A stretch of 64,000 nt of DNA, from positions 1 to 64,000 of the forward strand of contig JADEYG010000015.1 of assembly GCA_016906335.1 (NCBI GenBank), written 5' to 3'. Below are positions 1 through 24,881 of the stretch, piece after piece; the first letter of the stretch is position 1, and each line of letters starts with the position of its first letter. The stretch is from Novakomyces olei. Taxonomy: Eukaryota. A program made the translations under genes and the position numbers. Below the pieces are notes generated by a model that was not told the origin of the DNA, searched no databases, and worked only from the letters and a program-made list of their open reading frames with translations.

Positions 1-92
1 AACCCTAACTAACCCTAACTAACCCTAACTAACCCTGACTAACCCTAACCCTAACTAACCCCTAACCCTGACTAACCCTAACTAACCCTGAC
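1..92 (-). repeat. Telomeric repeat tract; G-strand units TTAGTTAGGG, TTAGTCAGGG and TTAGGG mixed
   Basis: Window starts with tandem AACCCTAACT (x5), AACCCTGACT (x3, last one partial), AACCCT and AACCCCT units, with the C-rich strand on +, as expected at a left chromosome end. Confidence 0.95.
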
Positions 93-286
93 ACAATCTT
101 TCTTTCAATTACTCTCCTTTTTCAACCTTTTTTTGCCAAAATCTACATAAATCTATTCCCATTTTCTACTTCTATTTCCCATCTCAACTCCAACTCTCTC
201 CATCCTTTTCTTTATCCAACAATCTCAACAAATTTCTCTACTCCACTCCCTGATAAACAACCCTAACCCTAATAAAACAACTTCCT

Positions 287-1180
287 CATACATTATAATA
301 CCACATACATTATCCCAATAATTACCCCTAACCCTAACTGAACAAATCTCATACATTATGCCCCCATACATTAATGCCCATACATTAATTTACCATACAT
401 TATTCCTCTATACATTATTCATCCATACATTATTCATCCATACATTATTCCTCCATACATTAATGCCCATACATTAATTTACCATACATTATTCCTCTAT
501 ACATTATTCATCCATACATTATTCATCCATACATTATTCCTCCATACATTATTCCTCCATACATTATTCTACCATACATTATTCTACCATATATTATAAT
601 ACCATACATTATAATGCCATATATTATTATACCATACATTATAATGCCATATATTATTCTACCATACATTATTATACATACATTACTTTACCATACATTA
701 TTCCTCCATACATTATTCTACCATATATTATTATACATACATTACTTTACAATACATTATTTTACTATATATTATTATACCACACATTATTATACATACA
801 TTATTCCTCCATACATTATTCCTCCATACATTATTATACATACATTACTTTACAATACATTATTATACCATACATTATTATACATACATTATTCACTTTA
901 CAATACATTATTTTACCATATATTATTATACCACACATTATTATACATACATTATTCCTCCATACATTATTCCTCCATACATTATTATACATACATTACT
1001 TTACAATAACTTTACAATACATTATTCTACCATATATTATTATACCATACATTATTATACCATACATTATTATACATACATTATTCCTATACATTAAATT
1101 ACCATACATTATTATACTATACATTATTATACATACATTGCTTTACAATAAATTATTCTACTATACATTATTATAATGCC
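287..1180. repeat. Subtelomeric AT-rich satellite, about 15-bp unit with core CCATACATTATT
   Basis: Dozens of tandem degenerate copies such as ccatacattattcat, ccatacattattcct and ccatacattattata. Confidence 0.95.
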
Positions 1181-1399
1181 ACATAAAATGCATCCTGCGC
1201 CGTCATGAGCTTTTTATAAATCTTTAAACCCATATATCTCCATAATTACTAATCCAATCTTGTAAACAAGTATATATTTACACTCCTACTGCACCCCTCT
1301 ATCCAACCATACACTTTTTGTAAAAACACTTGTTCATTCGACGTTTTGTCACCTCTACACATGGACTACACACTCTTAATTTTTCTTATTTTTCTGACG

Positions 1400-1566
1400 T
1401 TTTTCTTATTATACTTTATTACTATGGGGCTCTCTCTATAATATTTTTATTATATTATCAGATAGCTATAATATGTGTAGACCATCTTGTATAATAATTA
1501 TATTTTATAAATTCAGCAACCCTACCCTCGCCGCAATATGGTTTGCCAATGTTTTGGAATTAAGGC
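1400..1566 (+). repeat. Subtelomeric dispersed repeat, module B (ttttcttattatac...tattatcagata..tat...caaccctaccct)
   Basis: Related copies at about 1906-2040, 2366-2447 (partial) and 10409-10497 (partial), with an inverted degenerate copy at about 16715-16810. Confidence 0.85.
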
Positions 1567-1606
1567 GGAAACTATTTTTGCTCTTACGTCGTTCTTACCC
1601 CCGTTT

Positions 1607-1905
1607 ATGCCAATTTCCTTAGCATTCCCGCGCAATTTCCCATATTATAATTTGGAATTTAGTCGGAAAATTCTCCCTAAAAAACCCTGCCTCCACGTTT
1701 CTCCTACCATTCTTATTAGAATTACGCCATAATTCGCGGGAATGCTAAGGAAATTGGCATGACCCCCCCCTCATACATTAATTATTTTTCGAAATGGAAT
1801 TATGGCGTAAAGGAAAAGCGAAAACCCTGACTAGAATTATACATAATAAGAATCGCATTACATAAAAATGGAATTTCGCCATAATTCCGTCTTGAATATA
1901 TCTAG
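1607..1905 (+). repeat. Hairpin module A, copy 1 (two inverted-repeat stems, ends gaatatatctag)
   Basis: Perfect 26-bp inverted repeat at 1607-1632/1735-1760. Second stem ggaattatggcg...cgccataattcc. 1750-1905 is nearly identical to 7216-7373. Confidence 0.85.
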
Positions 1906-2074
1906 TTTTTCTTATTATACTCTATTACTATGGTGCTCTCTCCATAATAACTATATTATATTATCAGATAACTATACTATGTGCCATGTGCGATGCAATA
2001 ATATTATTATTTATAATATACCCTTACCCTACCCCAAGCAATGGCTGTGATGAATTTATCAAAAATCCACAGCC

Positions 2075-2365
2075 TATCAATATTTCGTCGATATGTCAGC
2101 TTGCGCTACTGTATTATCCAATAGCATCGCTGTATTCAGCGATATTTCGTCGAAATGTCGCAACTTTTTTAGGGGAACTTTTCGCAGTTTAATATATGGC
2201 AATCCACTAGCGCCTTGCGACATTTCGCCGAAATATCAGTGATAGGGTTTTCTCGAATTTTAGACATAATGCAATTATTATACAAAAAAAATAATACCAG
2301 CTGACATTTCGTCGAAATGTCGCTAGTAATAATAGCTAGGCGTAATGCGCGCTGGAATATGTACG
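2075..2365. repeat. Palindrome module C: four copies of a GACATTTCGnCGAAATGTC-like palindrome, ending at junction motif ggaatatgtacg
   Basis: Palindromes at about 2079, 2140, 2217 and 2301. Inverted degenerate copy at about 16480-16700. Confidence 0.8.
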
Positions 2366-2447
2366 TCTTGTATAATAATTATAATTTATAAGTTCAGCAA
2401 CCCTACCCTCGCTGCAATATGGATTGCCAATGATTTGGAATTAGGGT

Positions 2448-2540
2448 CCTCCATACATTAATCCTCCATTTATTAATCCTCATACAATAATCTTCATACA
2501 ATAATACTCCATACAATAATCCTCCATACATTATTGCATA
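2448..2540. repeat. Second short patch of CATACA(T/A)TA satellite
   Basis: tcctccatacattaa / tcctcatacaataa / tactccatacaataa tandem units. Confidence 0.8.
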
Positions 2541-2718
2541 ACTTGCGCATTACTTATAAAATTGCTCTCCATACTATAGTTATAGTTGAATAAATTCGTG
2601 ATGCCACACTCGACATATAATAGGTTTCAATTCATAAATTTTCCATTATATCTATGAATCCTGCATACGTTGAATCACATATTAATACAATAAATGAAGA
2701 TAAATTAGATCCAACAAA

Positions 2719-5700
2719 CTACTTTTGTTCCGCCATTTTGGTTGGCCTGTCATTGCTGAAATACCAATGCACGAACTTTACACCCGCTATTTGTGTGGGA
2801 CCGATTGTGATTTGACCGGCCCACAATAAGCATGCTGTGCCTTTGGCCGGTAAAGCTTCACCAGTCCAGGTTTTTAGTTTGTCTTTCATTTCTAATTTTT
2901 CGTGTGCTAATTCAAATATAGTAAATAACGATGGCATGATCTTGTCTGAATATTGACATTGCCGTTCCTCTTTCTCAAATGCCGTCCGACATATTGTTTG
3001 AGGTAGGTAGCACCGATAGCAAACGCTCCCAGATTTTATCCAATTTCGCTGATTTGCTTTCAATACTGTTCTTTTGGCGTCCAAGTACAAAAACTTTATC
3101 CTGTTCCGGCATTGGCCAAAGCCGTGTGAGTACTGACTAGCACCGGAAAGGAGACACAAAACACATTTGTCTGAAAGATAAAGCATTAAATTGTGAATAT
3201 CTTCAGCAATTATGATGTTCGACCGATCTCTCTGTAACACGGCTTGTCGACCATATCGGCAATCGGGCTGCCTCTCGTTTGCTTCAGCCCGGACCTTGCG
3301 GCGCTTCGACATCTGACATAAGTCACAATGATTCTCGTCCGTCTGACATCGCGCTAAGTCTTCATCATAGTCGTTGAAATATCTGTCTAGTACTAATCTC
3401 CTGCACTCTGTTTCATGTACATATCTTCTCAATGGTTTCTCCATTGTGCTTAGATCATCCTCACTAAATATGATTAGGCTCTCGGCTCTTCTGCCATCTC
3501 TTCCAGCACGTCCTGATTCTTGGAAATAGTCTACCAAACTGTAAGGCGCTTTGGCATGCACAACCAGTCTCACATGTTGGAAATCAACACCAGTTCCAAT
3601 AGCAGTCGTTCCAACTAATACTTTGCTTTTCTCACCTAATATCCACCGATTTATTATTCCAGCCTTCTCAGCAAAGCTAAGCTTTGATGTTATGCAATGC
3701 GCACGACTAGCAATAGCAATTGTTTCGGCGTCTGACTTTGTTCTTGCGATACACATTACGCGATCATCTTCATCTTTGAATTCAAATTGTTTCAGAGTAT
3801 TTATTACTTCGGACTGTAGTGCTCCAGTAGCTTGCCTCGCTTTGTAAACAATGTTGTGTCTACGACATCGTACTTTAAACCAAGTCGGATTCTCTAGCAC
3901 AAAATGGTCTATAAATTCGCTCCTTTTGCACGGAGGAAGCGTTGCCGACAAGAGCACTATTGGTACATCCAATAGTCTTAAACTAGGTATTTGTTGAATT
4001 GCCTTTCTGTATGACGTAGTAAATGCCAAATGGCATTCATCGACTACCAATCGATCAAGAATTCCTCTTTGGCGTAAAAGTGTTAAATATTGCCGTCCCG
4101 AGTCCGACACAGCTGTCTCCACCGACATCAAGGTTAAGCGATAAAACTTTTGCGGCGAATCATTCGCGGTCCATATTCCAGTGTCGATCCCCACTAGTTT
4201 GGACCGACGTTCCACATCAATCATCAACGCCACAAATGGTAAAACCATCACTGTGCATGAAGCTTGCGGCAAGCAAGCTGCAACCTGGATTACACATGTC
4301 TTTCCAAACCCAGTAGGAAATACAATAACTATTTCCTGTACCTTTCGGGCAACTGCTACAATAGCATCCGCCTGTATTGCAGCACGGAATTCAAAATCAG
4401 AACCAAACAGCTCTTTTGCTTTTCTAAATGCATTCTTTTTCAGTTGACCAATGGAGACTTCCAAATCTTCTGGTACTGCTTTAGTATTTTCGATCTTGTC
4501 CGTAGCATGAATATATTGTTCAGACATTTTGAAGAAATCCGCCCATGACTGACACGCCTTCCAACTATGGTTGAGCCAAAGATCAGCCGTATTCTTCAAA
4601 CCGCTACTGTTTCCGTACATTGTACTGTGTGTTGCGACACTGTGATTCGATAGGTGTATTAAATTGACAGCATTATGAGTCATAGTAAGACCTTCATCAT
4701 CGTCACTGTTGTCCTCAACGTCTGCGATGTGTTTTGAGAATTTGACATTTATAATGGACGAAGCAATCTGCCGCCAGGCAGATATTGACAACGTTGGAAC
4801 ACTTGCATGTGCGCAAGACTGCTCGAAGTACCGAGAAAGGCACTTACCGTCCCATTCCTTTCCATGTGACACAAATAATGCCGTTTGAGATAGTGCGTTC
4901 CCGAGGACACCCTGTAAGTATTCAGTAAACGGTTGAATATAAATCAAATAATTCAGAACCAAGTTCCCCACTTCGTGAGTTAGAAACCGTGCAAGGACTC
5001 GCGGGCGCCCAGTAATGTTTTGTGTTTTAGTATAGGTTGTATATACTAGCATCTGTCCATCTTTAATAAATATATTTCGCCCTCTCCTTCCATTTCTGAA
5101 CCATATAGTTATGGTTTCCGTACCGCGCAATGGGGGCGCTGATATTGTTAATAGTGTCCATATCCATCGCAAAAATGTGTGTACCGCAGCCAAATACCGC
5201 GCAATGGCTGATTTGTCCCAGTCTCCTGTTCCGTTATGAAAATAAGTTGTTAGACGTGTATTTGATTGCAATAGACGAACGAGCCAGTTTTCATGTTCTT
5301 TTAAATAAATAATGTTTGTTTTCAGCTGCTATCCCAAACCAGTAGCCAGGCTGTGAAATATGAATTAAATCACGAAGAGATTTTGTCGAAAGAAATTTGT
5401 AGTTGATTCCAAACAAAAGACTGTCGCTTAAAATTCCGTAGGCTGCCAAAACTGCGCGTTTGTATAAAATTGTGATTTCGGCCATTCGTAGAGAACTTCC
5501 TCTGTAAGAGACTTCTCTCTCTGCAATATCCCAGGTACATTGGTGCGGATTAACATAATATTTTGTATACTGAAAAAGATAAGCTCTCCAATTAAGAAGA
5601 ACTCCAACCGCAGTACTTCTTGATGGGTTGAGAAACTGCTCAACTAAAATGTCCAAGTTTGAACTAGCCTCTCCCGGCTGCGAGCAAGCCTCTTCAAACA

Positions 5701-6829
5701 AAGTTAATTGAGCGCAGTAAATCAATCCAGATAATATCGTATTAAATCCATTAGGCGGTTTCCAGCCTTTTGAAGCATCTCCTTGATATAAATAAGCACA
5801 TGATGCACAAAAGCTTAAGAGTGCAGAATCAAAATCGTTGTTTTTAATTGGTTGTTTTAAAAGATATAAACCAATATAAAAAAGAAACCGTCGCGCAGTA
5901 TCAAATAGACCAGCTTTGATTGCAAGTACAGTCCCCTCGACATTAGCCCTTTGAGCGTCGTCACAGTTCAACATCAGTCGAGTAATGAAAAATCGAATTG
6001 CCTGAGCCCAGTACGAAAAATATCTTTTCTTAGTCGCAGGTAAAGTTGTTCGTCGAAAGTGGCGCACTCGTCCAGAATTGTCCGGCACAAAACTACTCAG
6101 TCTAGTCGCCATAGCTGAAGTCATTTTCATATTGCTTTCATCAAATATATTGTTATATAAAAGCTCGATTTGTTCATCAATACTGTCAAGCACTGTGGAT
6201 TCGAAATTGCTCAGGTTTTCCGTTTGTAAACAGACTCGATCAAACCCAAACTTCGTGACCCACGGTGGAATGTCTCTTTGATCGACATCACTTTCTGTTG
6301 CAGCACTGGGAAGGGTTATAAGGGTCTTTTCCAAGAACTTTCCTACAACGCCCTCCGCGGCTGAATTTGAGCTTGGTTTTAAACCATCTTTCGCAGCAAC
6401 ACGAAAATATTTCAGAAATTGATTCTCTGTAAAACAAGTTTGTAGGGGTGAACAAACAATATGATCTTTTGATGTTCGAACAGTATGTTCTTTTGAGATA
6501 TGCTGCTCAATGACCTTTCGCGATGTTGAAGCAGCATCATAGCAAAAACTGCAGTAGTAGCCTTGGCAAACCTTTAGAAATAATAACGGTTCAACCACTT
6601 CACGCAGGCTCGGCGTGCTCCAATATATATTCAAAACAGGAGCGATATTCACGTCGTTTGCATTAATTACAGAAAGTGCAATTTGAAGTTCAGTTGACTT
6701 TAGCTTATGCGCCTGACGCAAATGCCTTTCGGCTGCGTTGGTTCCAACCTCGACCTTTACGCATGCCCGACAAGCCTTGCAAGCAACTACCTTTAAACCA
6801 AAGGCCTCCTCGATTCCCAAGTACTCCAT
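2719..6829 (-). CDS. tlh: Telomere-linked RecQ-family helicase (TLH-type), interrupted by a single-base frameshift at about 5299-5302; N-terminal Zn-finger-like region, central tyrosine-recombinase-like region, DECH helicase and C-terminal Cys-rich region
   Basis: Helicase motifs PTGFGKT, VVDECH, LSAT, QESGRAGRDG and an RQC-like CRR..C..CDLC. N-terminal CxxC...HxxxxH motifs. Removing one A from TTT AAA A GAA joins ORF 5291-6829 to ORF 2719-5271 (…HYLFK-EHENWLVRLLQSN…). Gene is telomere-adjacent and transcribed toward the telomere. Confidence 0.9.
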
Positions 6830-6917
6830 GACTGAGTATATCTGTTCAAGTCTTTAATTACTACTAGAAACATGCTGTAATCTATTTTCGATATAATGCG
6901 AATCTTATTATTAATAG

Positions 6918-7373
6918 TGTGAATTTCCTTTCCGTCGTCGCGATTTTTACCATATATTAACCTGGAATTATGCAGTAAAATCTACCCTCGAAAACCCTGT
7001 TTGACTATTTGTTATTCAATTCTTATTAGAATTACGCCGTAATTCGCGACGACGAGCAGCAAATTCACATGACCCCCCTCCCATACATTAATTAATTTTC
7101 AAACTGGAATTACGCCGTAATTCTACGTAGAACACCCTAACAAAAAATATAGCTAATAAAAACTACGATACATATATTTCGAATTACGGCGTAATTCGCG
7201 CAGGAATATGTATAGGAAATTGGCATGACCCCCCCCCCTCATACATTAATTATTTTTCGAAATGGAATTATGGCGTAAAGGAAAAGCGAAAACCCTGACT
7301 AGAATTATACATAATAAGAATCACATTACATAAAAATGGAATTTCGCCATAATTCCGTCTTGAATATATCTAG
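6918..7373 (+). repeat. Hairpin module A, copy 2, plus an abutting partial copy (junctions at about 7215 and 7373)
   Basis: Stem tgtgaattt...gtcgtcgcga / tcgcgacgac...aaattcaca, then a perfect gaattacgccgtaattc / gaattacggcgtaattc pair. 7216-7373 repeats 1750-1905. Confidence 0.85.
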
Positions 7374-7915
7374 AGCCATTGCCAGAGCACAAAGGAAACA
7401 GTACGAATTGGTCGTCGACCATGACACCTGCCGGGACATTTACAAACGTCCACATTGACCCTGTGGCGTACGGCAGTGTTATATTTGGGATATCAGGAAC
7501 GAAGGTAGTGCTGATGTGGCCTCCTACAGAAGTGAATCTAAGAACTTACGAGGAATATCATCGCTCTACTCAGGGTCGGGTCATACCAAGACACCTCCCT
7601 ACGCTTAAGAGCCTCCATTACAGTGTTTTGAGGAAAGGGATGATGTTGAATATGGAACCGGGAACGCTTCACGCGGTTATCGCTGTCTCGGACAGCTCGT
7701 TACTTGGATACAACTATGCCGCGAAGGACTGTGAATGCCTTCAGCGAGTGGTCGACTGGGAAGCCAAGTTAGCCCAGAAGAGACCAGGGATCAAAAGCGC
7801 GGTGATACAGGAACACCGGACTATGGTGGATTTTTACAGAGAGGTCTACGGGACGGACCTACCAGGGACAGCGAAAAGAGTGTTGTCGGGACTTACTCTC
7901 TTGGAGGGGGAGTAA
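7374..7915 (+). CDS. 5'-truncated JmjC/cupin-like 2-oxoglutarate Fe(II) dioxygenase ORF at the 3' end of an LTR element
   Basis: TPAGTFTNVHID (HxD), GTKVVLMWPPT and MEPGTLHAV (distal His). No ATG before the domain start; frame is open from the junction at 7373; last codons overlap the polypurine tract. Confidence 0.7.
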
Positions 7916-8291
7916 TGTCAGGGGTTGCTTAGAAAGGTGCTGGGAGCACTTGAATAAGCAACTTCGTAGTTTAGTTAGTTAGTTTATTTAGTTGTATTGT
8001 AGGAAGTTGCTTAGAGTAGCGCTTGGAGCGCAGACTCTAGCACTTCTGCAATAAGTTAGTTACTTTAATAGTTTCGTAGAGTGGGATCTTCGGCAAGTAA
8101 CGAGCCGAGCCCAAGTATAAGAAGAGGAGTTCTTCTACTGGGTTCGGGGCGTTACAACAACCAAGGTTCCGCTTAATATAAGTGTCTTGAGATTAGTTCT
8201 TCTATCTGCCTATCCTTTGCTACTCCCTGTCAAGGCCAACGTGTGATCTTGGCCGACTTAAGATTACTTTGTATTGAGTCACCCCCTAACA
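7916..8291 (+). mobile_element. 376-bp 3' LTR (TG...CA) preceded by a polypurine tract; inserted into the Copia pol
   Basis: PPT ggagggggag at 7903-7912, then taa, then TGTCAGGGG...CCCCTAACA terminal inverted repeat. TATA-like gtataagaa near 8115. Copia reading frame resumes right after 8291. Confidence 0.8.
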
Positions 8292-10075
8292 TAGAGCTTA
8301 TCAGCCCAGGAAATCAACCTGCGCGAAAAAGAAAAACGTCATCAGAGCAACTAGGAGACGAAAAATTCAGAAAAATAGACCCGCTGCAGGAAATCCTTTC
8401 TGGTGAAAGAAAATTAAATCTTGAAGGGATCTCCAAAGAAAAATTGAAGAAAATCCTTTCCCCCCTTTTCCTTAAAAATGGTCAAAGGAAAATATTAAAC
8501 AGACCCAAAGGAGGCGTTAATCACATTGAAGCTCCTGACATTGAGCCTCAAAATTACAATGAAGCCATCACTGGGCCATTTGGGAATCAGTGGAAAGAAG
8601 CAATAAATAAAGAACTAAAAGCAATGGAAAGAAATGAAGTATGGAAAGTCGTTTCCCAATCACAAAATATACGTACAGTTGGATGCAGATGGGTGTTTAA
8701 ACTGAAACAAGGAGAACAGTCGAATGAAATAATTAGAAAAGCAAGACTAGTAGCACAAGGGTACTCACAGATTTTTGGAAAAGACTATGAAGATACATAC
8801 GCCCCAGTCGCTCGTCCTGACAGCATACGGTGGTTATTAGCTTACAGCGTAATTAAAAATTATGAAATCTATCAAATCGACGTGGATACAGCCTTCCTAT
8901 ATGGTACACTAAAGGAGTCAGTGTACATGAAAAAACCCGATGGAGTGAAAATTAAAAAACCCGGCCTTGTCCTAAAATTAAACAAAAGTCTCTATGGTCT
9001 CAAACAGGCACCAAGATCGTGGAACAGTGAACTGGATTCTACATTGACAAAATACGGTCTAACAAAATCAAACAAAGATTCTGCCATATATTACAATGAC
9101 TCTTTAATTATTGCTGTCTACGTAGATGACCTCATGATCGTCGAAAAACAGAAAGGAAAGAGACTTGAATTTGAATCCTTTTTGAAAACATTTTACTCCA
9201 TCAAGTCACTTGGAAAAATAAAGAGATATCTTGGTATGGACATTACATATGACCGCGACAAAGGAATACTCAAATTGTCACAGTCACAATTTGCTAAGTC
9301 AATTATACGCACTTACGGAGACACTAACCTAAAATACATAAGTCAGCCCATCACAAACATCAATTCACTCTATCATCCCGCGGATGAAAATTATGATTGT
9401 CTGGAAATCTATCCAACTATTATAGGAAAATTAATATATTTGACTGAATGGACAAGACCAGACCTCAGATTTGCAATAAGTATGTTAAGCAAACATACAA
9501 AAAGACAAAATGAAGAACAAATACAGGCCTTAAAACACACCATGAGATATCTAAACGCTACACTGGACACATGTATCACCTACACTAGAGAAAATGATCT
9601 ACAGATACACTCGTGGGGCGACTCTGATTTCGCCGGAGACACTTGCGACAGAAAATCCCGATCAGGATACGTTGTCTCACTAGGAAAAAATAACGGCCCA
9701 ATAGCCTGGAACTCGCAAAAGCAAAAAATTGTAACACCAAGTACAATGATGGCGGAGTTCGAAGCTATGAAACTAACAGTCAATCAAGCCTTGTACTACA
9801 AATATCTAATGGACGAAATTAATAAAGGGCCCGATAACATCCCAATCGTCTACTGCGATAACAACGCCTGCATATTACTTGCAACTAATGGTGGAAACTA
9901 CCAGGGTTCAAAACATCTAAGTAACACCTGCTACTATGTGATGGATATTGTGAGAAATGGACTGGTAAGCATACAGAGATGCCCCTCACGAAACATGAAG
10001 GCAGATGGATTGACCAAGAACCTACTTGGAAACAAATTCACTAAATTTACAAAAATGCTATACAATGAAGAATAA
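8292..10075 (+). mobile_element. Ty1/Copia retrotransposon pol, 3' part (reverse transcriptase and RNase H), 5'-truncated
   Basis: WKEAINKEL, KARLVAQGYSQ, QIDVDTAFL, LYGLKQAPR, YVDD catalytic motif, RNase H DSDFAG...RKSRSGY and ADGLTK. No gag, protease or integrase core in the window. Confidence 0.95.
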
Positions 10076-10130
10076 CAAAAAAAAAAATAAATACAAGAAT
10101 ACAAAAAGGAAATAAAAGATTCAAGGGGAG

Positions 10131-10157
10131 TGTTGAAATATGAATCTATTATCCCCT

Positions 10158-10195
<38 letters not shown>

Positions 10196-10408
10196 ACTCG
10201 CCGACTCACTGACCGGCTAAGACAACTCAACCATGAGTGTCAGTTGTTTGACTTTTAGCTTTACAGAATACTCACTCAAAAATACATAGTTACATATATA
10301 TAGCTCAAGCGAACCCTCACACCCTCGGGGGATTCAGCTGAAGCAATCTAGAGTATCTAATTCATTTAATCTACCATAAGAGCAAATTCCAACCTTCTAT
10401 ATTCAACA
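10131..10408 (+). mobile_element. Copia 3' LTR (278 bp) containing a (TAA)n microsatellite
   Basis: PPT aaggggag at 10123-10130, then TGTTGAA...TTCAACA termini; module B sequence resumes at 10409. Confidence 0.9.
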
Positions 10409-10567
10409 TATTATATTATCAGATAACTATAATATGTGTAGCACATCTTGTATAATAAATATATTATATAAATACAACAACCCTACCCTTGCCGCCATTC
10501 TCTGCCCTGACATTATGCTGTAATCCTGTTTCGATCTGACGCTCTTTTTATAGCCTCCAGCCTCCAC

Positions 10568-10865
10568 TGTGAATTACCTTAACATACCCGCGCTTTTTCC
10601 CATACATTAACGGCGCATTATGCAGTAAAATCCGTCCCTGAAAACCCTCCCTACAAATTTCTACTGCATTTCTTATTTACATTACGCCGTAATTCGCGCG
10701 TATGTTAAGGTAATTAGCATGACCCCCCCCTCATACATTAATTTATTTTTTGGACCGCATTACGCCGCAAAATCAAACCGAAAACCCTGTCCAATTTTCA
10801 ATGCTATAATAATCACATAACAAATTATTGATTTTGCGGCGTAATGCGCGCTGGAATATGTATAA
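10568..10865 (+). repeat. Hairpin module A, copy 3 (ends ggaatatgtataa)
   Basis: Stem aattaccttaacatac / gtatgttaaggtaatt, plus a perfect 21-bp pair cgcattacgccgcaaaatcaa (10756-10776) / ttgattttgcggcgtaatgcg (10828-10848). Same gacccccccctcatacattaa and gaaaaccct spacers as copies 1 and 2. Confidence 0.85.
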
Positions 10866-11003
10866 GTAATATCAACCGTTCGAACTTCAACATAACTTCA
10901 ATTAATTCAACAAAGATTATTATATAGACCGTTCGAACAATATATCCAACATCAATAATTTTAACACAAAAGCTTAGTTTTATAAATATTTTTTTATTTT
11001 AGA

Positions 11004-12182
11004 ATGTTAGGGTTTATACAGATCAAAAGACGTACGCGTAGTGCGGTCATGTTAAATCGCCGTAAACGAAAGCCAGACGTGGCTAATGTTGACCGTGCTG
11101 GTGAAGCAAAATTGAAAATGATTGATAATGAGGAAATCGATGAAATGCGTTTGAATTCCTCGTCCGCAGTTAATGATAAGTTTCACGTCAGCGCCTTCAG
11201 GACTGCGTTTGAGGCATGGATCCCGCTTGAAACGCCGGTGACCGTTGCATCCAGTTCTGGAGTTAAGATATGCAATATACCATCTGCGTTTATTCAGCGC
11301 AGTCATTATGCAAATTGCGCTTATCTTGAGTTTGTCGTCGCATCTATCATACAAAACAAAGGTGTTCTCGAGTTCAATGGAACCCGTTGCCTACCGAATG
11401 ATCCCATTCAGGTGGGGAAATATGTTTATATAGTTGATGGTAAGTCGCAGATGAGAGGATGTTTAGACTGACTGTTTAGAAGATGCAGAAGAACTGAGAC
11501 CGCAAGAGGGACCCGAATCAAAAAGCAAAGCAAGGCCTTTTCGAAATTTACATCTTGATGAGCTTACGTCGACGTACAGCAAGTCTTCACGGAGCTCATA
11601 CGGACAGGTAGGGGAGGAAGAAATTTTCTTTGGTACTCACATGAACCTAGAATCGGTTCAGGGAGCGTTTGATGATGAGAGATGGCGGCTGTCTAGTGTT
11701 TGGTGAGTTTGGAGAAGACAGATGTGAGGCCTGCCATATTATTCCCAAATCGCGCGGAAATTATGTATGTTTGACCGGAACCTAAGTTGTTTAGAGTTGT
11801 TGCTTACCTGTCTCAGCTTTTGCACGGAATCCTTGATGCTAGCATAGCTGACGCTTTCGATATCGATTCTGTGCAGAACGGACTGTTTCTTTCCTATGAA
11901 CTGCACAAATACTTCGACAAGTATATGTTTGGTATTTATTGTCCGGTAAGACAGTATACTGGAGATTAGAGTACTTAAAATTACCAGGAAACAGAGGTTT
12001 TCGAAATTCATTGTTTTGTGCCGAAGGACAATTTGTTGGACTATCACGGAAAGCAGCTTCTACTAAATCCGAGGTTTAAAAAATACTGGCCCCGTAAAGA
12101 GTTTCTTGACTGGCATTACCGTCAATGCGTGATGGCCAGACTTCGAAGACATTCTTCATTCATGAGCGCAGAACAGGCATGA
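11004..12182 (+). CDS. HNH endonuclease (HNH_2-like) family protein, paralogue A, 4 introns
   Basis: GT-AG introns at 11440-11479, 11608-11650, 11765-11816 and 11946-11987 give a continuous frame with RDGGCLV, EACHIIPKS, NGLFLSYELHKYFD and WHYRQCVMAR. Start codon uncertain. Confidence 0.85.
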
Positions 12183-13149
12183 TTTCATGAGCCGAGACGC
12201 GTAACAATTTATCCGTCTGTAAACCATGGACAATGTATATCGATTATTTTGAGAAATTAAGAGCCAAAATTTTGATTATCGAGGTGATCCGATCCAGCAA
12301 TATAAAAATGATAGCTGTCATCTTTTTATTGGCCTGGCTACGGACATATATTGTCAACATATGAAGTTTTGACACATCTGGAGCGATATGGTCAGAACGA
12401 ATGCCTATTTCACTAGTCAATTCTACTAATTGCTCTTGAATCAGTCCAATGTCCATAGGACATATGGGCCTAGCAGCTGGTTCGAAAGTTCAGCCAGTGG
12501 GCCGTCGCCAAGATCAGAATATGAAGGTCAACCAATGAATCGTACGTGAGTTTGATTCTTTCTGCCCAACCAATCACGCTTAAATCGGCGATCTTGTCAA
12601 ATATATTTCACCCTTTAGCAATACGACATCAAAATATATTGCTGTAATAATTTGCATCAACCGTTGTCTCCAAGATTTTAGAAGCATGGCTGGCCTTAGT
12701 CGTCATAAATGGCTCTTCTTTCGGATCTGTGCATGCACACAATAGTCCGCAACTAAAATTGTTTTGGAATAGCTAGGCTTTGCATGGAAAGTCTCCAAGA
12801 AAGCGAGGTCAATACCGCATGGAGAGGCAAGTTCAGTAGTTTCATACCGCGAGATGCATTTGAACGTCTCAGGAAAGTGCGGTGATCCTTTAAGGTAAAT
12901 TTAGTACCATAAAGTTGTGGCGGCACATCTTGTCTGTCCGGCTCGTGATTTTTTAGTGTCTTTCGGGATACCTCTGGTCTCTTGAGAATTTCAATATCAA
13001 TTTACGTCCATTAGCGCAGTTTGATATATGTCTTCAATCCAGGATTGGCCTCTTTCCTGGTCGTATATTTAAGTTCGAGACACTGACGCCTCAATATTTG
13101 AACAATGATAACTATTCTTGCGATAGAAAAAATTTTATTCGCAAATCCC

Positions 13150-13650
13150 CACATACGGGAGAGACGGCGGTGGCAATATCTAACCCTGTAAACATTTATT
13201 TCACAGCAGTGAACTTTCTGGTACGATGCGCCGAAAATATGCACTACACATTTTGTCACTTCTGAAGGAGGTATTTGTCAAACTTGATCTGCAGAGCCCG
13301 GTCAAATGTCAGGCCATTTGATGGTGTAAACAAATCAACAAAGCTATGAGCAATTGCACGCGAAAACCTTAACCAAGACCGTAGTGTACAATAGTATATG
13401 CCATTAACGTGTTTCTCGTTACGTTCTTTGAAGGGATACATCCATGGTCACGAAAGAAATGGTTCTATGCGAAATTCTAAATATCTCTGCAATGGCATTA
13501 CCAAATTGCTCACGGGACAAAAAGATGCAGTCTCGTTAAGTTTTCTGCTTTTTGATCTCTCCTTCGGACCGAGCGCAATGCTCAAAGCCTTCGTACAATG
13601 TGTTGAGCGTGTAGTCTTATTTGACCAGTGATCACTCGGTCCGTAAAACG
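13150..13650 (-). pseudogene. Heavily decayed HNH family paralogue E
   Basis: Fragments LGPKERSKSR, EFRIE, DLFTPSNGLTFDRALQIKFDKY and VVHIF, in different frames, match the intact paralogue at 61671-62495. Confidence 0.6.
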
Positions 13651-14059
13651 GAGCCACCGGTCAAGTCGATACCACCAAAATCGCCATTGCTACGGCTTAT
13701 CAGCTCTAGGCTACTTGACAATTAAAGCGTGAGCCACGATATACAAGTTACGATTATCGGCTCTTCCCTGTTGCGCAAAATAAACGGAGGCTTTTCATTT
13801 GGAATCTAGATTTGCTAGACCTCACCGGCCATTAACGGTATGGCTTGTATCTGATCCTGTCGTTTGCTTGCTTTGCTTGTAAGCCATCGTCCAGATCCAA
13901 TGATAGATCCAGGCCAAGAACTATTTTTGCCCCCATAAAGGTATTAAGGGCTGGGTTTGGTTGAGAAAATCAAAAAGCCGTGCACGATAGCGTCACACAT
14001 GCATCTCTCCCATATCATGGATTCGAGGAGTCCACAAAGACATAACTGTTCTACCTAGC

Positions 14060-14330
14060 GCCATGTGCTAGGCAAAAGAGAGTTGCTGATGAGCAGTACA
14101 GAACACGCTAGTATTTGTTCTGCAGCAGATACTCTAGAGCATATACCAGTCGGTATCAGAATAAAAAACGACAGCACGGAACTTTCCAAAGAACGGAGCT
14201 TCCTTGAAGACTTGGCAGACATACCAGGCGTTCCGAAAGTCATTTTGTACTTCGTGGAAGATCGCTATCAATATCTCGCACAAGAAAGGATTGGAACGCG
14301 CATCAGCAAGAACTGCATGGAAATTTGATT
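14060..14330 (+). pseudogene. Possible protein-kinase N-lobe remnant
   Basis: VGIRIK...ELSKERSFLEDLADIPGVPKVILY...YQYLAQERIG resembles kinase subdomains II-V; no intact catalytic loop is visible. Confidence 0.4.
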
Positions 14331-15410
14331 TAGTCAATCTGATTTCGCATTTCTTTTAATGGTCTAGCTCTTCAGCTTCTAAATAGGTATTCTGGTTGCA
14401 CTGCGGGCCGATTGCCACGGGACAAAAGCATCCGAATATTTGGCGAGACCATTCGAAGATCAATTGCCAATCATTAACAGGTAATGTTATTGATGATGAA
14501 TTGTTTCGTGGCTGCAAAAATCCACTGCAAACTTGCAGTTGAGCTCATATAGAGTCGTCCTCAGCCAAAGGCAGTAAGAACAGCCAATGTGCATTCCCAA
14601 GCGCCCGAGTAACTTCTCCAAAGGCAATTGACGGCGTGGGAATACGACAGCCTTTAAAACTCCACATACATTCTGTTGGTGCTCGCTTAATCCGGCACAA
14701 CTTTTTTAAAGCTGGAGCTTTTATCGAAAATAGCCACGAAAGAGAGACGACGTCAAGAGCTCGACAACAACTGGTCTTTTGAGCAGTAATGTGCCAGTTA
14801 TCTTGATTCAAACGCTCCTCTGCTGGCGACGGCGACATACATACGGTCATACGGCCGGCACGGCAATCAAATGACTCGCCACAGCAAATTCGGAACTCAA
14901 AAAATGAGATGTCTAAGAAACTTGCACGTCATGGGCATTGCACGTCATGGGCAGCGGCGCACCGCAATTTGGTCGAGCGCTACTATCAGATACAAAGGAG
15001 TCAATTATCATGGACATGGCTGAATTAATCTTGAGACAAACTTTATTTTTCTCCCAGCTTTCGGTGTACCGCGATTTCCCCTGAATCAATGGCTCAATTG
15101 AGGTCTTAAATTGTTGCGAATTTTGTGTCTATGATGCTGCTCTTAAGAATACATCCAGTATGTAGAGAATATAGAATGCAAAGTTTAAAGAGTAGCTCGT
15201 TAGAATTCAGAAGAATCTGGTTTGTGTACAGTTTTTCCTGGAATCTGCATGTCCTCCAAAGCTACCAGCCGACAGCATTAACTCATAGTACGGCACAATT
15301 TGTTGTCATTGTCTCGATATGGCTAACAAAGTTCATATTGAAGACGGGGCTCTGAGCATTATAATTCTCCTACAGAGCACTGGCTGCGCTTTTTGGATAT
15401 CAAATGCTCA

Positions 15411-16227
15411 TCATACCATGGATACTGCAAAACCTCTAAATCTCGTCAATACACATTGTGTGTAATGCCAGCGTAGAAGAGGAGGGTAAGGCTTATCACG
15501 GTCGCGAACTAAATCTATGAACATGATCTCCTTTCCGTGATATTCAGATACATCATCTAGAAATGAATGAACATAATATCGTCCATTCTCAACCCAGATA
15601 CCAAAGACATATCGATCGAAAGCTTTATGCAATGAAGAACTGAGGGTCAGCCCGTTTCTCAACGCTGTACAAACCAACACGACCCTGAGTAAGCTCAAAT
15701 AAAAAGTTTTGGCCAAGGCTGTAGGGAATGATATGGCACGCTTCATTATAGTTTATATTTCTTTGGCCGCTGACCATACAGCGACCAAAATCGCGTATGA
15801 AGCATTCGAGACGAAATTGTGTTTGTCTTTGCGAGCTCCTCGAAGAACTACTTACGGTCGACAAACTATCAGTAACTGGGAGCGTTCGCATTCGCGATTT
15901 GCTCTGAGGTCCTGGTCAAAAGTTAATCTCGTAAGATGCAGGCTCGGCTAATATATACGTGGTCGGTAAAATTTCCGCATCTGACTCGCATGATCCTTCA
16001 TCGCAACATAACTTGATCGTCTCAGGTGCGTTCGTAATGGACGCAACGATAACTTCATAGAGATACTGAACCTTTTTCACACTGGCAAGTTTGGCACTAG
16101 CACAGAACTCAAAAGGCAGCTGAATAATCAGCTTGTTGTCGGAATTAACAATTTTGATGGTAAGGATGCTAGCCCAACTCTCCACAGAGGTTTTGTAAGT
16201 AGTCTCGTACAGCGGTTCACAAGACAT
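15411..16227 (-). pseudogene. Intronless HNH family paralogue B with a nonsense codon and a frameshift
   Basis: Colinear with 61671-62495. INF*PGPQSK versus ILFRPGPQGK (TGA at 15916-15918). One extra base near 15655 before NGLTL. Retains EACHIIPYS, LHKAFD and WHYTQC. Confidence 0.85.
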
Positions 16228-16479
16228 TGTAGATTTAGTGCTCCAGCAGTCAATCAAGACCCCCAGTTAAGCTGACAGCGGTCGAACTGACATGGGCAAG
16301 GGATCAATTATTCAATTGTATAGGCTGGAGGCGTTATTGAAAATCATTACCAGGTTTTTCTCTACTGGAAATATAACCTGCTTCGTTTCTGACGATTTGA
16401 AGACGGAATGAGTGACGAGGTGATGTCGCAGGAAGTGTTTAGCAATCTTTCAAATTGAAAGACACGGCTATCTATTATT

Positions 16480-16860
16480 GCTAGCGACATTTTGATGTAT
16501 GTCAAGACTGAGAAAACCCTTATCACTGATATTTTGGCAAAATGTCAGAGCGCGCTAGTAGATTACCCATATATTAAACAGCAAAAAAAATCACTTTCGC
16601 AGCAATATCAATGAAGGAGACATTCTATTGGATAAAACGGCAGGGCTAGCTGACATTTCGCAGCAATATTGATAGGTTGAGGATGTTTTATGAATACATA
16701 TAGATTTCATTCATTGCCTTTAGGGCGAGGGTATATATTTATAAAGATCATATTGCAAAGTGCATTTGCATATTTTATATTTATTTGATAATAATATACT
16801 ATAGATATAGCCTACCTGAATAAATATCCGTCTTGACTTAAGTCCAGGAATATGTATAGA
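16480..16860. repeat. Degenerate inverted copy of modules C/B followed by junction motif caggaatatgtatag
   Basis: gagaaaacccttatcactgatattttggcaaaatgtc...gcgctagtagattacccatatattaaac matches the reverse complement of about 2185-2255; ends ccgtcttg...ggaatatgtatag. Confidence 0.75.
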
Positions 16861-16895
16861 ATAAATGTAGTCGCCGGCCGCATACACGACCGTTG

Positions 16896-22801: not shown

Positions 22802-22967
22802 TGTTATTTTATCTTGAAGTAGAGTTCTTGAGGTAGAAATAGTTGCATTAGCGACGAACAGTAGCTTCAGCTGAATCCCTCGGAGGTTCTAGGAATTTGC
22901 TTGGGCTACATATATGACTATGTATTTTTCTAGTGAGATCCAGTAAAACTAAAGTCATAACAGGCAC
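22802..22967 (-). mobile_element. Degenerate LTR fragment related to the Copia LTR at 10131-10408
   Basis: gcttcagctgaatccc...gcttgggcta..tatatg.actatgtattttt..gtgag...gtaaa.ctaaagtca matches the reverse complement of about 10240-10408. Confidence 0.75.
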
Positions 22968-24684: not shown

Positions 24685-24803
24685 TTTATTTTCGAATTTA
24701 TAATCATAGCGTGAAGGAAAAACCGAAAACTCAGACTATATTTCTACATAACTAGAACCACACTACATAAAGACCGAAATTCGCCACATGAATATATATC
24801 TCG
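24685..24803 (+). repeat. Old degenerate copy of the module A 3' half with junction motif
   Basis: gcgtgaaggaaaaaccgaaaactcagacta...ctacataa...ctacataaa...aaattcgcca...gaatatatatctcg aligns by eye with about 1780-1905. Confidence 0.7.
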
Positions 24804-24881
24804 GCTATAAGGACGCAGACCTAAGATAATCGTGTCCTGGTTTTATTAAACCGCGGAACAGAGTTTAGGTCGCGTTCGCCG

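Follow-up and report, generated by a model that had tools for sequence, protein, structure and literature searches.

Seven homologous, mutually alignable repeat units of about 150 bp each, placed head to tail in three arrays (A1-B1, A2-B2a-B2b and A3-B3), were found near one end of the window, by which we mean the whole 64,000-nt stretch of Novakomyces olei contig JADEYG010000015.1 analysed here. The stems of these units change in sequence and nevertheless stay complementary. We tentatively regard the units, with a probability just short of even, as non-coding repeats of telomere-associated sequence that spread in blocks and whose arms co-vary through recopying rather than through selection on the fold. 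An earlier note on this DNA had described hairpin modules with changing but self-complementary stems, and an inverted-repeat scan recovered every stem that it quoted where it had been placed. The hairpins are thus real, but the three modules described there proved to be parts of seven units in tandem arrays.

Repeat units at the chromosome end

The window covers the end of a fungal chromosome (Table 1). Its telomere repeats are followed by a satellite, a gene for a RecQ-type helicase and a broken copia element, and its genes are of fungal type. The telomere repeats were resolved by TRF at 1-89 with period 10 and 9.6 copies, and the satellite with periods 15/30/44 and about 56 copies. The 15-nt satellite unit, compared by eye, is similar to the CCCATACATTAA motif at the head of each hairpin unit. 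The helicase has distant relatives only (best 26-28% identity), and the start of the OrsD-domain gene lies 89 bp from unit A2. No transposase, Rep, Pif1-type helicase, integrase or recombinase domain was detected by Pfam scan in any of the 25 distinct ORFs scanned in the window.

Further copies of the leader repeats U1 and U2 lie at 1905-1983, 2366-2446 and 10409-10526 (direct-repeat scan and blastn). The V insert holds four 19-bp palindromes of the type GAyATTTCGyCGAAATrTC, laid out as nested inverted repeats, and terminates in a fragment of the right half of stem 2 followed by the right arm (2339-2363). Its second copy carries deletions, and the centres of its arms have lost complementarity. 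The copia element retains a pol frame at 8177-10075 (RVT_2), a polypurine tract and a 3' LTR at 10131-10408 (TGTTG...CAACA), and its right flank at 10409 aligns to 1448 (blastn). A copia LTR identity was rejected, since the 3' LTR directly follows the polypurine tract and U1 begins only at 10409, after the LTR, which makes U1 the insertion target of copia.

Table 1. Positions of the repeat units and neighbouring features in the window.
Feature	Position	Strand	Basis
Telomere repeats, C-rich strand, AACCCTAACT and AACCCTGACT units, marking the left chromosome end	1..100	+	sequence
Subtelomeric satellite, 15-nt unit (CATACATTATT...)	350..1175	+	TRF, direct-repeat family D1
Leader repeats U1 (1399-1477) and U2 (1485-1565), ahead of array 1	1399..1606	+	direct-repeat families D6, D7, D9; blastn
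Unit A1	1607..1760	+	inverted-repeat scan, covariation, folding
Unit B1	1761..1905	+	inverted repeat I10, folding, alignment
V insert, between second U1 and U2	1984..2365	+	inverted repeats I3, I5, I6, I8; blastn
RecQ-type helicase gene, 777 aa, telomere-linked	2719..5052	-	Pfam DEAD, Helicase_C, RecQ_Zn_bind
Gene for OrsD-domain protein, 512 aa	5291..6829	-	Pfam PF12013; sequence
Unit A2	6918..7069	+	inverted repeat I4, covariation
Unit B2a	7070..7228	+	inverted repeat I13, folding, palindrome search
Unit B2b	7229..7373	+	direct repeat D4 (7231-7373, 99%); blastn
Truncated Ty1/copia element, inserted into U1 of array 3	8177..10408	+	pol frame with RVT_2, PPT, 3' LTR
Unit A3	10569..10718	+	inverted repeat I9, covariation, folding
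Unit B3	10719..10880	+	inverted repeat I7, folding
V element, degenerate second copy	16464..16808	-	blastn, sequence comparison
Solo decayed B-type unit, downstream of flavodoxin-like gene	24686..24806	+	nhmmer E 2.9e-5

Each unit is a quasi-palindrome that runs from a head (the old left arm, CCCATACATTAA) through the left half of stem 2, a loop with a telomere-like AAACCCTG motif and the right half of stem 2 to the right arm. The shared spacers described in the earlier note were confirmed: GACCCCCC..CATACATTAA has four matches at no more than two mismatches against 0.00 expected, and the telomere-like spacer GAAAACCCT is exact in five of the seven units. The telomere variant unit AACCCTGACT is exact in B1, where it lies in the loop at 1823, and in B2b.

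The outer stem, stem 1, characterises the A units, in which a palindrome lies immediately 5' of the right arm. It is fully complementary in A1 (1607-1632/1735-1760, 26/26, or 30/31 when one extra base is allowed), spans 29 nt in A2 (6918-6946/7041-7069, 24/29 paired, 83%) and 21 nt in A3 (10572-10592/10695-10715, 20/21, 95%). The B units keep only a remnant of it (9/10 or 8/9); the right arm of B2a, GGAATATGTATAGGAAATTGGCAT, has as its left partner only the decayed head (9/10). The inner stem 2 pairs perfectly in the B units, with 12 pairs in B1 (1796-1807/1877-1888), 17/17 in B2a (7107-7123/7181-7197, each arm itself a near-perfect palindrome) and 21/21 in B3 (10756-10776/10828-10848), and decayed in the A units (14/20 in A1, 15/20 and 12/16 in the others).

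Stem 2 of B1 and B2b pairs GGAATTATGGCG (1796, 7264) with CGCCATAATTCC (1877, 7345), and B1 terminates in ...ATATATCTAG. The two units are 99% identical (blastn of 1716-1905 against 7178-7373 gave 93.9% over 196 nt), and as direct repeats they bracket a 5.3-kb segment with the helicase and OrsD genes.

Folding and co-variation of the stems

The folding of each unit as single-stranded DNA was compared with 200 shuffles. Scores of z = -7.0, -4.6 and -6.0 were obtained for A1, A2 and A3 and of -4.4 and -5.2 for B2a and B3 (0/200 shuffles each), and B1 gave -2.3 (6/200), so that five of the six distinct near-telomere units fall between -4.4 and -7.0. No stem is left in the solo unit (z 0.05, with 95/200 shuffles folding equally well).

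Over the 26 bp of stem 1 in A1, A2 and A3, 72 of 78 cells are paired (92%) and 9 of 26 pairs are altered on both sides; none of 500 shuffles attained any of five measures of this co-variation, and slid controls were 28-44% paired. For stem 2 over the seven units the co-variation is statistically weak: 72.7% of cells are paired against 70.0% when shuffled (57/500 as high), and 10 of 22 pairs are doubly altered (8/500). Shuffled partners pair almost as well because both arms of stem 2 are near-palindromes themselves. The proposition that complementarity is kept while the sequence changes stands for stem 1 and, as far as the B units are concerned, for stem 2, but is poorly borne out for stem 2 over all seven. 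The sample is tiny, with three units of type A and three distinct ones of type B.

The pattern of change within stem 1 was inspected further. The arms are as variable as the interior, with 16/26 and 15/26 invariant columns against 60/102. The six Watson-Crick double changes of A2 fall into two clusters (columns 11-12 and 25-29), which give a derived CGTCGTCGCG block in both outer-stem arms, and the neighbouring four mismatches also form one block. The three double changes of A3 are isolated single pairs. Among the nine non-Watson-Crick cells, three are G.T and one is C.A, with no clear strand bias. Under a model of independent decay with 70% complementarity expected, the pooled arms (69/78) depart from expectation (p ~1e-4); taken singly, only A1 stands out (26/26, p ~9e-5; A2 21/26, p 0.16; A3 22/26, p 0.07).

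Spread of the units and origin of the co-variation

In run X1 a single 445-nt contig covers 1371-1815 at a depth of 75.6, against 21.3 for unique sequence. Since this contig runs through A1 without a break, at about 3.5 times the depth of unique sequence, the flanks of A1 are always the same and roughly three to four copies are indicated, contig depth being a rough measure of copy number only. The depth bins that contain A2 and A3 are single-copy (21.3 and 23.6), and depth overall suggests only a handful of copies in the genome. In 4/4 junctions the same GACCCCCC head comes after the right arm, and the left flanks differ. The identical head implies that target-site duplications are lacking, and at the unit junctions examined in the window there were none, nor was there a sign of independent mobility.

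Two of the seven units, B1 and B2b, end in a GGAATT..AATTCC hairpin, 13 nt and CTAG; the remaining units end in ...GTATAG or run on into the right arm. Several right flanks start at one and the same nucleotide after the CTAG end, in the window 1906 and 7374 and in X1 and X2 contigs 8114, 5862 and a variant of 2249-2267. The base after CTAG is T at 1906, A at 7374 and G or T in the contig joints. This shared breakpoint has the appearance of a defined terminus or a hot spot and not of random duplication breakpoints.

We suggest that the units multiply in blocks, through duplication and through ectopic recombination of one chromosome-end repeat with another and not by transposition of single hairpins, and that one arm would be repeatedly recopied from the other, so that the stems stay complementary while their sequence drifts. 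Recopying could take place while the DNA is in single-stranded form, by a template switch within the molecule in replication or repair, or alternatively by conversion of short tracts or correction of mismatches once the strand has folded. The co-variation would then arise as a by-product of mutation and would not prove that the fold is selected. Unit anatomy, co-variation, the pattern of copies in blocks and the lack of mobile-element hallmarks are observations; the recopying is inferred. In quasi-palindromes, template-switch mutation overwrites one arm of an imperfect inverted repeat with a copy of the other (excerpts of PMC8794818, PMC5453318 and PMC3820800), and the excerpt of PMC8794818 describes perfect stems and multibase compensatory changes arising in a single event, as would match the clustered double changes and perfect stems found here. 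The parallel is to a mutational process and not to a sequence family, and it is assumed here that the process bridges a spacing of about 100 nt between arms and acted repeatedly in several units. The copies are too few for ancestral states to be reconstructed.

The alternative that the fold itself is under selection, with compensatory changes kept in single-stranded DNA hairpins (a signal for recombination, replication or helicase loading, with a logic like that of attC sites or single-strand origins) or in a hairpin RNA feeding subtelomeric small-RNA silencing, appears unlikely. It would account for the strong co-variation of stem 1, for the fold scores near the telomere, for the retention of one strong stem, whichever of the two, in every near-telomere unit, and for the telomere-repeat unit within the conserved loop motif; the arrays also adjoin a RecQ helicase gene, and RecQ-class enzymes act on folded and forked DNA. 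Recopying is favoured over such selection because arms and loops evolve at the same pace, double changes are multibase and partly clustered, and stems are either perfect or absent, with decay tolerated in stem 2 of the A units and in the outer stem of the B units. The pairing is also lost in copies farther from the telomere, namely the solo unit at 24.7 kb and, at the centres of its arms, the second V copy. With about 100 nt between the arms, extrusion of a cruciform from duplex DNA is unlikely, none of the 25 ORFs scanned in the window is a recombinase, and Rfam 15 yielded no family match, its sole hit over 1-12000 being a sub-threshold one to the miRNA precursor MIR5512 (29 bits at E 0.049, where the gathering score is 139). 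Of the two causes offered in the earlier note, homogenisation of the arms within a copy thus fits better than selection on the fold, on account of arm and loop conservation, the A2 clusters, the perfect-or-decayed stems and the foldless relics. Counter to recopying, each unit retains exactly one strong long-range stem, as selection for one hairpin per unit also predicts, the isolated double changes of A3 are as expected from stepwise compensation, and a common CTAG terminus meets several right flanks. Recopying is the more likely process, but with seven units its preference over selection remains unproven. It is more improbable still that the symmetry reflects binding of a dimeric factor to duplex DNA, at sites given by the 17-bp palindrome GAATTACGsCGTAATTC and by its 19-bp relative in V, with the long-range stem 2 a side effect of two sites per unit. 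The 17-bp palindrome has seven matches at no more than three mismatches against 0.12 expected, all within units and in six of the seven (two in B2a, none in B3), the V type has five against 0.02, and the near-equal pairing of shuffled stem 2 partners agrees with such sites. Stem 1, however, with non-palindromic arms 102 nt apart, is left unexplained, and the two sites in B1 and in B3 have drifted from self-symmetry yet are perfectly matched to one another over 12 and 21 bp, a mutual match for which a duplex dimer site has no need.

Mobile-element termini or remnants were also considered, either foldback or MITE-like ends co-evolving through a shared transposase, or Helitron or Helitron2-like ends with subterminal hairpins recognised by shape, of which arrays would accumulate by repeated insertion or read-through in a rolling-circle version; we hold this to be doubtful. 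The A units do have terminal inverted arms of 21-29 bp, and several right flanks abut the CTAG end at the same nucleotide. The hairpin, 13 nt and CTAG of B1 and B2b may correspond to the canonical Helitron 3' end, in which a hairpin lies 10-12 nt from CTRR, and the inverted repeat of the A units with the palindrome before the right arm loosely recalls the inverted repeat and hairpin of Helitron2, whose hairpins are likewise kept by shape (excerpt of PMC5148889). The arms of 26 bp, however, exceed the repeats of 12-16 bp quoted in that excerpt (PMC5148889). Against mobility, target-site duplications are lacking with the same head after the right arm in 4/4 junctions, and copies are not independently dispersed: the A1 flanks 1371-1815 are common to all run X1 copies, and A2 and A3 are single-copy. 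The base after CTAG is T in only one of the two window cases, no 5' TC end preceded by A is definable, no consistent A/T insertion site was found, and among the 25 scanned ORFs the helicase is of RecQ type, with no Rep, Pif1-type helicase, transposase or recombinase. The units may still represent a single-strand origin or rolling-circle terminus, a reading that is kept because hairpin, 13 nt and CTAG ends meet several right flanks.

Independently moving MITEs were rejected, as the units lack target-site duplications and are not dispersed in unrelated flanks; the ordinary MITE families with duplications of their own that the earlier note had set against its reading were accordingly not encountered. 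The units share with MITEs and foldback elements a small size (about 150 bp), a strong fold and, in the A units, terminal inverted arms, of which the B units lack the left one. They differ in being tandem with shared junctions and in having arms as variable as the interior, whereas the transposase-bound end is normally the conserved part of such an element.

Related systems

The comparison with integron attC sites made in the earlier note fails on context, for the units lie on a eukaryotic chromosome end and 0/25 scanned ORFs in the window is an integrase. The attC sites are bacterial, need an adjacent tyrosine-recombinase integrase (IntI) and attI, and carry R''-L'' / L'-R' boxes with extrahelical bases in the folded bottom strand. 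They are imperfect inverted repeats that keep structure rather than sequence and bracket a gene cassette, much as the helicase and OrsD genes lie between B1 and B2b. The X and Y' elements of S. cerevisiae comprise a helicase-bearing subtelomeric element and short repeats with telomere-like protein-binding motifs, and spread via chromosome-end recombination. The arrangement found here is similar, with a helicase-bearing subtelomeric element accompanied by telomere-like short repeats, but the sequences and the helicase family are unrelated, and we know of no hairpin units in X or Y' elements.

The closest known system is that of the helicase-associated tandem repeats (HARs) beside telomere-linked RecQ helicase (TLH) genes in Magnaporthe. 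There, according to an excerpt of PMC1635262, TLH genes are flanked by tandem repeats of the subtelomere, in which telomere-like motifs and a conserved palindrome occur. The HARs of Magnaporthe oryzae resemble our units in their AT-rich region and in the telomere-repeat-like motifs within repeat units, and the HAR-D unit type has a conserved 23-bp imperfect palindrome (excerpt of PMC1635262). The likeness is one of description. The helicase here is at best 26-28% identical to its distant relatives, the arrays here are very short, with two to three units each, and long-range stems of 12-26 bp with co-varying arms are not mentioned for HARs in the excerpt of PMC1635262. A TLH-type subtelomere would also be expected at many chromosome ends of a genome, and depth in X1 suggests only about three to four copies of the A1 block. 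Two features of the TLH system are nonetheless present in the window, with the telomere at 1-100, arrays at 1399-2535 and 6872-7373 on either side of the RecQ helicase gene (2719-5052), and repeat units that carry telomere-like motifs and a conserved palindrome.

Anatomy of the hairpin units

Seven mutually homologous units, head to tail in three arrays, replace the three hairpin modules that the earlier note had claimed. Each unit consists, in order, of a head with CCCATACATTAA, the left arm of the inner stem (stem 2), a loop with GAAAACCCTG, the right arm of stem 2, and GCGC followed by a right arm of GGAATATGTATAGGAAATTGGCAT type. A left arm is present only in the first unit of each array (A type), where it is an inverted copy of the unit's own right arm and forms with it the outer stem (stem 1). 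Pairing between head and right arm of B units (TCCCATACAT with ATGTATAGGA) extends over only 9/10 or 8/9 bases, and we read the head as what is left of a former left arm that has decayed. The stems quoted in the earlier note were all recovered in place by an inverted-repeat scan: stem 1 of A1 (1607-1632/1735-1760, 26/26 complementary), A2 (6918-6946/7041-7069, 29 nt at 83%) and A3 (10572-10592/10695-10715, 21 nt at 95%), and stem 2 of B2a (7107-7123/7181-7197, 17/17) and B3 (10756-10776/10828-10848, 21/21). A 12-bp stem 2 pair, GGAATTATGGCG/CGCCATAATTCC, was found in two units. The shared spacers also proved real, GACCCCCC..CATACATTAA giving four matches versus 0.00 expected and GAAAACCCT being exact in 5/7 units.

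Features of the chromosome end, with pairing and single-stranded DNA folding of the hairpin units
Feature	Positions	Strand	Outer stem	Stem 2	Fold z	Shuffles folding as well	Remarks
Telomere repeats	1-100	C-rich strand					10-nt unit AACCCTAACT; AACCCTGACT and shorter variants (AACCCT) interspersed
Satellite	350-1175; also 2447-2535						15-nt unit (CATACATTATT...)
Unit A1	1607-1760		30/31	14/20	-7.0	0/200	
Unit B1	1761-1905		remnant 6/7	12 perfect pairs	-2.3	6/200	
V insert	1984-2365						382 bp; between U1 (1905-1983) and U2 (2366-2446)
RecQ-type helicase gene	2719-5052	minus					777 aa
OrsD-domain gene	5291-6829	minus					
Unit A2	6918-7069		24/29	15/20	-4.6	0/200	
Unit B2a	7070-7228		remnant 9/10	17 perfect pairs	-4.4	0/200	
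Unit B2b	7229-7373						
Reverse-transcriptase frame, Ty1/copia element	8177-10408 (pol frame 8177-10075)						truncated; distal pol and 3' LTR only
Unit A3	10569-10718		20/21	12/16	-6.0	0/200	
Unit B3	10719-10880		remnant 8/9	21 perfect pairs	-5.2	0/200	
V2, degenerate second V copy	16464-16808	minus					

The loop of B1 and B2b carries the exact telomere variant AACCCTGACT, which is otherwise confined in the window to the telomere. At 24686-24806 a profile of the seven units detected one more copy (E 2.9e-5), a solo unit of B type that has decayed and is now devoid of a fold (z 0.05). Arrays 1 and 3 are each preceded by the leader repeats U1 and U2, which are found again on either side of the V insert. 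Each arm of stem 2 is itself a 17-bp near-palindrome, GAATTACGsCGTAATTC, which has seven matches at three or fewer mismatches, versus 0.12 expected. V holds four 19-bp palindromes of a related form, GAyATTTCGyCGAAATrTC, arranged as nested inverted repeats, and its end is a fragment of a palindrome only, not the full 17-bp one. In V2 one palindrome is altered symmetrically, from TCG..CGA to TTG..CAA, the product that two mirrored CpG transitions would give. As a further test of co-variation between arms V gave no support, its second copy being decayed and partly deleted.

Co-variation of the arms and its cause

Covariation in stem 1 was counted on an alignment of A1, A2 and A3 only (n=3). In the 26-pair outer stem 72 of the 78 cells are paired and both sides have changed in nine pairs (10 cells), values matched by none of 500 shuffles whichever measure was used; sliding the partner by 1-3 columns reduced pairing to 28-44%. 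Strict Watson-Crick pairing holds for 26, 21 and 22 of the 26 positions in A1, A2 and A3, respectively. Under a crude model of independent decay with 70% expected complementarity this corresponds to p values of ~9e-5, 0.16 and 0.07 (pooled ~1e-4), and since A1 alone is individually significant, the evidence for stem 1 lies mainly in the count of compensated columns and not in the percentage paired. Covariation of stem 2 across the seven units is weaker. Here 72.7% of the cells are paired versus 70.0% when shuffled, 57 of 500 shuffles reaching as high, while in 10 of 22 pairs both sides have changed (8/500 shuffles); the test is weak because each arm is a near-palindrome, and the stem is also decayed in the A units. 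The nine cells of stem 1 that depart from Watson-Crick pairing (three G.T, one C.A and five others) display no usable strand bias, and thus nothing in them indicates an RNA made from one strand.

The earlier note had attributed these stems to selection on fold or symmetry, or else to homogenisation of the arms within each copy. Its observation that symmetry is kept as the sequence changes stands, and arm-to-arm recopying is the more likely cause of the co-variation, rather than selection on the fold. Invariant columns make up 16/26 and 15/26 of the two arms versus 60/102 of the interior, so the arms are conserved no better than the interior and there is no sign of a constraint on arm sequence of the kind expected if a transposase or another sequence-specific protein bound there. 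A2 differs from A1 by six Watson-Crick double changes, which fall in two clusters, columns 11-12 and 25-29, and form a CGTCGTCGCG block common to both arms; the four adjoining mismatches of A2 are likewise contiguous, the left arm there retaining the CCTT of A1 and A3. One multibase change followed by one copying event would be a far simpler account of A2 than point substitution at a dozen positions. Within each unit the stems are either perfect or clearly decayed, a pattern that would be produced if recopying depended on an already good stem, and the copies deeper in the chromosome, V2 and the solo unit (24.7 kb), have lost theirs. It is the combination of equal conservation, clustered changes, perfect-or-decayed stems and fold-less internal copies that favours recopying over selection. 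Template switching in quasi-palindromes is described in PMC8794818 as a process that can generate perfect stems as well as compensatory changes of several bases, and PMC5453318 and PMC3820800 appear to treat such mutation too.

Recopying must be weighed against a very small sample, in which three double changes of A3 are isolated pairs, and against the observation that each unit near the telomere has exactly one strong stem, as selection for one hairpin per unit likewise predicts; also the common CTAG boundary of the units could be a cleavage site, a point against recopying. That the fold itself is selected, as a single-stranded DNA signal or a hairpin RNA, would fit this one-stem pattern and the strong covariation of stem 1, but we consider it unlikely given that arms and loops change at equal rates, that the changes are clustered, that the alternative stem decays and that no RNA family is matched. 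The sole Rfam match in 1-12000, a miRNA-precursor family, scored 29 bits versus a gathering score of 139, and the possibility of a non-coding RNA entertained in the earlier note thereby finds no described family. Very improbable is the proposal that the palindromes are duplex binding sites of a dimeric protein: it fits the 17-bp and 19-bp palindromes, but leaves stem 1 unexplained, and the site pairs of B1 and B3 match each other perfectly though each site has lost its self-symmetry.

Covariation of a stem is normally counted as the strongest sign of a functional fold. The present locus offers a small natural example, from the non-coding DNA of a chromosome end, in which that signature is found and the details favour a mutational cause. 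If confirmed, recopying would be a useful warning for covariation-based discovery of RNAs and would make the locus a tractable substrate on which to study how templates are switched, or hairpins corrected, near telomeres. Should the fold instead prove to be selected, the units would point to a DNA signal read by its structure in subtelomeres that bear a helicase and whose mechanism of spreading is still poorly understood.

Unit boundaries, mobility and relation to known repeats

In the DNA run X1 one contig of 445 nt is unbroken from 1371 to 1815 at a depth of 75.6 versus 21.3 for unique sequence, and the bins containing A2 and A3 have the depth of single-copy sequence. Contig depth gauges copy number only roughly, and the much higher figures from a second DNA run, X2, with more than 1000 small records, are untrustworthy as copy numbers. 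B1 and B2b are 99% identical, and a wider match, of 1716-1905 with 7178-7373, reaches 93.9% over 196 nt. As direct repeats they bracket a 5.3-kb segment that contains the helicase and OrsD genes as well as V and a remnant of the satellite. Such an arrangement is expected where repeats of chromosome ends have recombined unequally or ectopically, or where a circle has integrated. In contig joints the B end, ...CTAG, joins at the same nucleotide to 8114 and to a variant of 2249-2267 (both in X1 and X2) and to 5862 (X2 only, with a short side). We take these joints as reshuffling at unit boundaries; they also supply the strongest argument that the terminus is a defined one.

Independently moving MITEs, raised in the earlier note with target-site duplications of their own, do not describe the units: the same head follows the right arm in 4/4 junctions, which leaves no target-site duplication, the flanks of A1 are shared and A2 and A3 are single-copy, so that no independent movement is seen in the contigs of X1. 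It is doubtful, too, that the units are the terminus of some other mobile element. At the ends of B1 and B2b a short hairpin is followed by 13 nt and then CTAG, near the canonical Helitron 3' end as outlined in part of PMC5148889, and the palindrome of the A units immediately before the right arm is loosely Helitron2-like. However, the arms exceed the 12-16 bp that the same part of PMC5148889 gives for Helitron2 repeats, the window has no Rep-helicase, no consistent insertion site or 5' end is seen and the copies are not dispersed independently. The likeness to integron attC sites is not borne out, since the units lie at a eukaryotic chromosome end and a scan of 25 distinct open reading frames, which took in a minority of the small frames, detected no integrase, recombinase, transposase or Rep domain. 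One may still speculate, although we hold it to be rather improbable, that the units belong to a subtelomeric element with a helicase and serve it as fold-selected single-stranded DNA signals, the equivalent in a eukaryote of attC or of a single-strand origin, read by shape and mediating excision, amplification or end-to-end transfer of a cassette. The stems would then possibly be read by the RecQ-type helicase or by a hairpin-directed nuclease cutting at the ...CTAG end, and the mobilised cassette would be the helicase segment bracketed by B1 and B2b.

The nearest described system is the subtelomere of Magnaporthe oryzae. As far as the relevant part of PMC1635262 describes it, a telomere-linked RecQ helicase gene is there flanked by blocks of 'helicase-associated' tandem repeats, which lie in an AT-rich region, contain telomere-like motifs and in one unit a conserved 23-bp imperfect palindrome. 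All four features are shared by the present locus, a likeness of description, whereas a long-range stem in each unit and concerted change of both arms distinguish it from the repeats in that account. The units are a helicase-associated subtelomeric repeat, akin to a known kind and set apart in that comparison by co-varying long-range stems. No account of such hairpin units, with arms that co-vary, in the subtelomeres of fungi came up in our literature search, which gives little ground for saying that none has been published.

The units are not the LTR of the adjoining copia element either, since its true 3' LTR is found at 10131-10408 (TGTTG...CAACA), after a polypurine tract. The pol frame ends at 10075 and the sequence from 10409 aligns to position 1448 of U1, indicating that the retroelement inserted into the repeat leader. 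The LTR contains an (ATA)12 microsatellite (10159-10194), and a weak partial LTR copy is found at 22864-22962.

Distribution and gene content of the chromosome end

The stretch 1200-11100 is present in only 3 of 24 listed public runs; the other 21, under the same species label, either contain almost nothing of it or are unindexed, and this chromosome end looks strain-specific. No RNA data set is listed as containing the stretch. The strain used for RNA may lack the locus, so the RNA runs X5 and X6, whose reads cover only an A-rich stretch at ~10071-10117 with poly-A loose ends and leave modules and genes uncovered, are uninformative on expression. Searches with GACCCCCCNNNCATACATTAA in metagenome contigs returned one locus unrelated beyond the motif (L001), and with GAATTACGSCGTAATTCGCG one locus in prokaryote genome contigs (L002, an Actinomycetota MAG in which the 20-mer alone matches), both by chance, and none in viral contigs.

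We treat the region as a chromosome end of fungal source carrying a telomere-linked helicase. That helicase has distant relatives only, the best at 26-28% identity in a collection of 5.8 billion proteins, and the OrsD-domain gene may be part of the same subtelomeric cassette. The 10-nt telomere unit AACCCTAACT had no match in two yeast-telomere papers, and a full-text search gave unrelated papers only. The variant AACCCTGACT equals the Yarrowia lipolytica repeat, but the proteins are not near any sequenced species. By eye, the satellite unit CATACATTATT is similar both to the motif in the heads of the hairpin units and to the complement of the right arm, and either of the two, satellite or arms, may have given rise to the other. 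The frames downstream of arrays 2 and 3 (7421-7915 and 11004-11471) are dissimilar (E 24) and hence not paralogous genes. The former, with no known domains, lies in a 740-bp segment (7374-8115) exactly between the end of B2b and the sequence that elsewhere directly follows a B end (joint 1903 to 8114 in X1 and X2), and this segment is an insertion/deletion difference at a unit boundary. A tRNA search of 1-20000 gave none. The rest of the window holds fungal genes of ordinary kinds, e.g. sugar transporters, oxoprolinase, alpha-glucosidase and Zn-cluster factors; the top matches of the alpha-glucosidase reach 58% identity only and are scattered across many fungal classes. Two open frames carry an HNH_2 endonuclease domain, one at 61671-62495 (plus strand) and a short one, probably a fragment, at 15411-15752 (minus strand).
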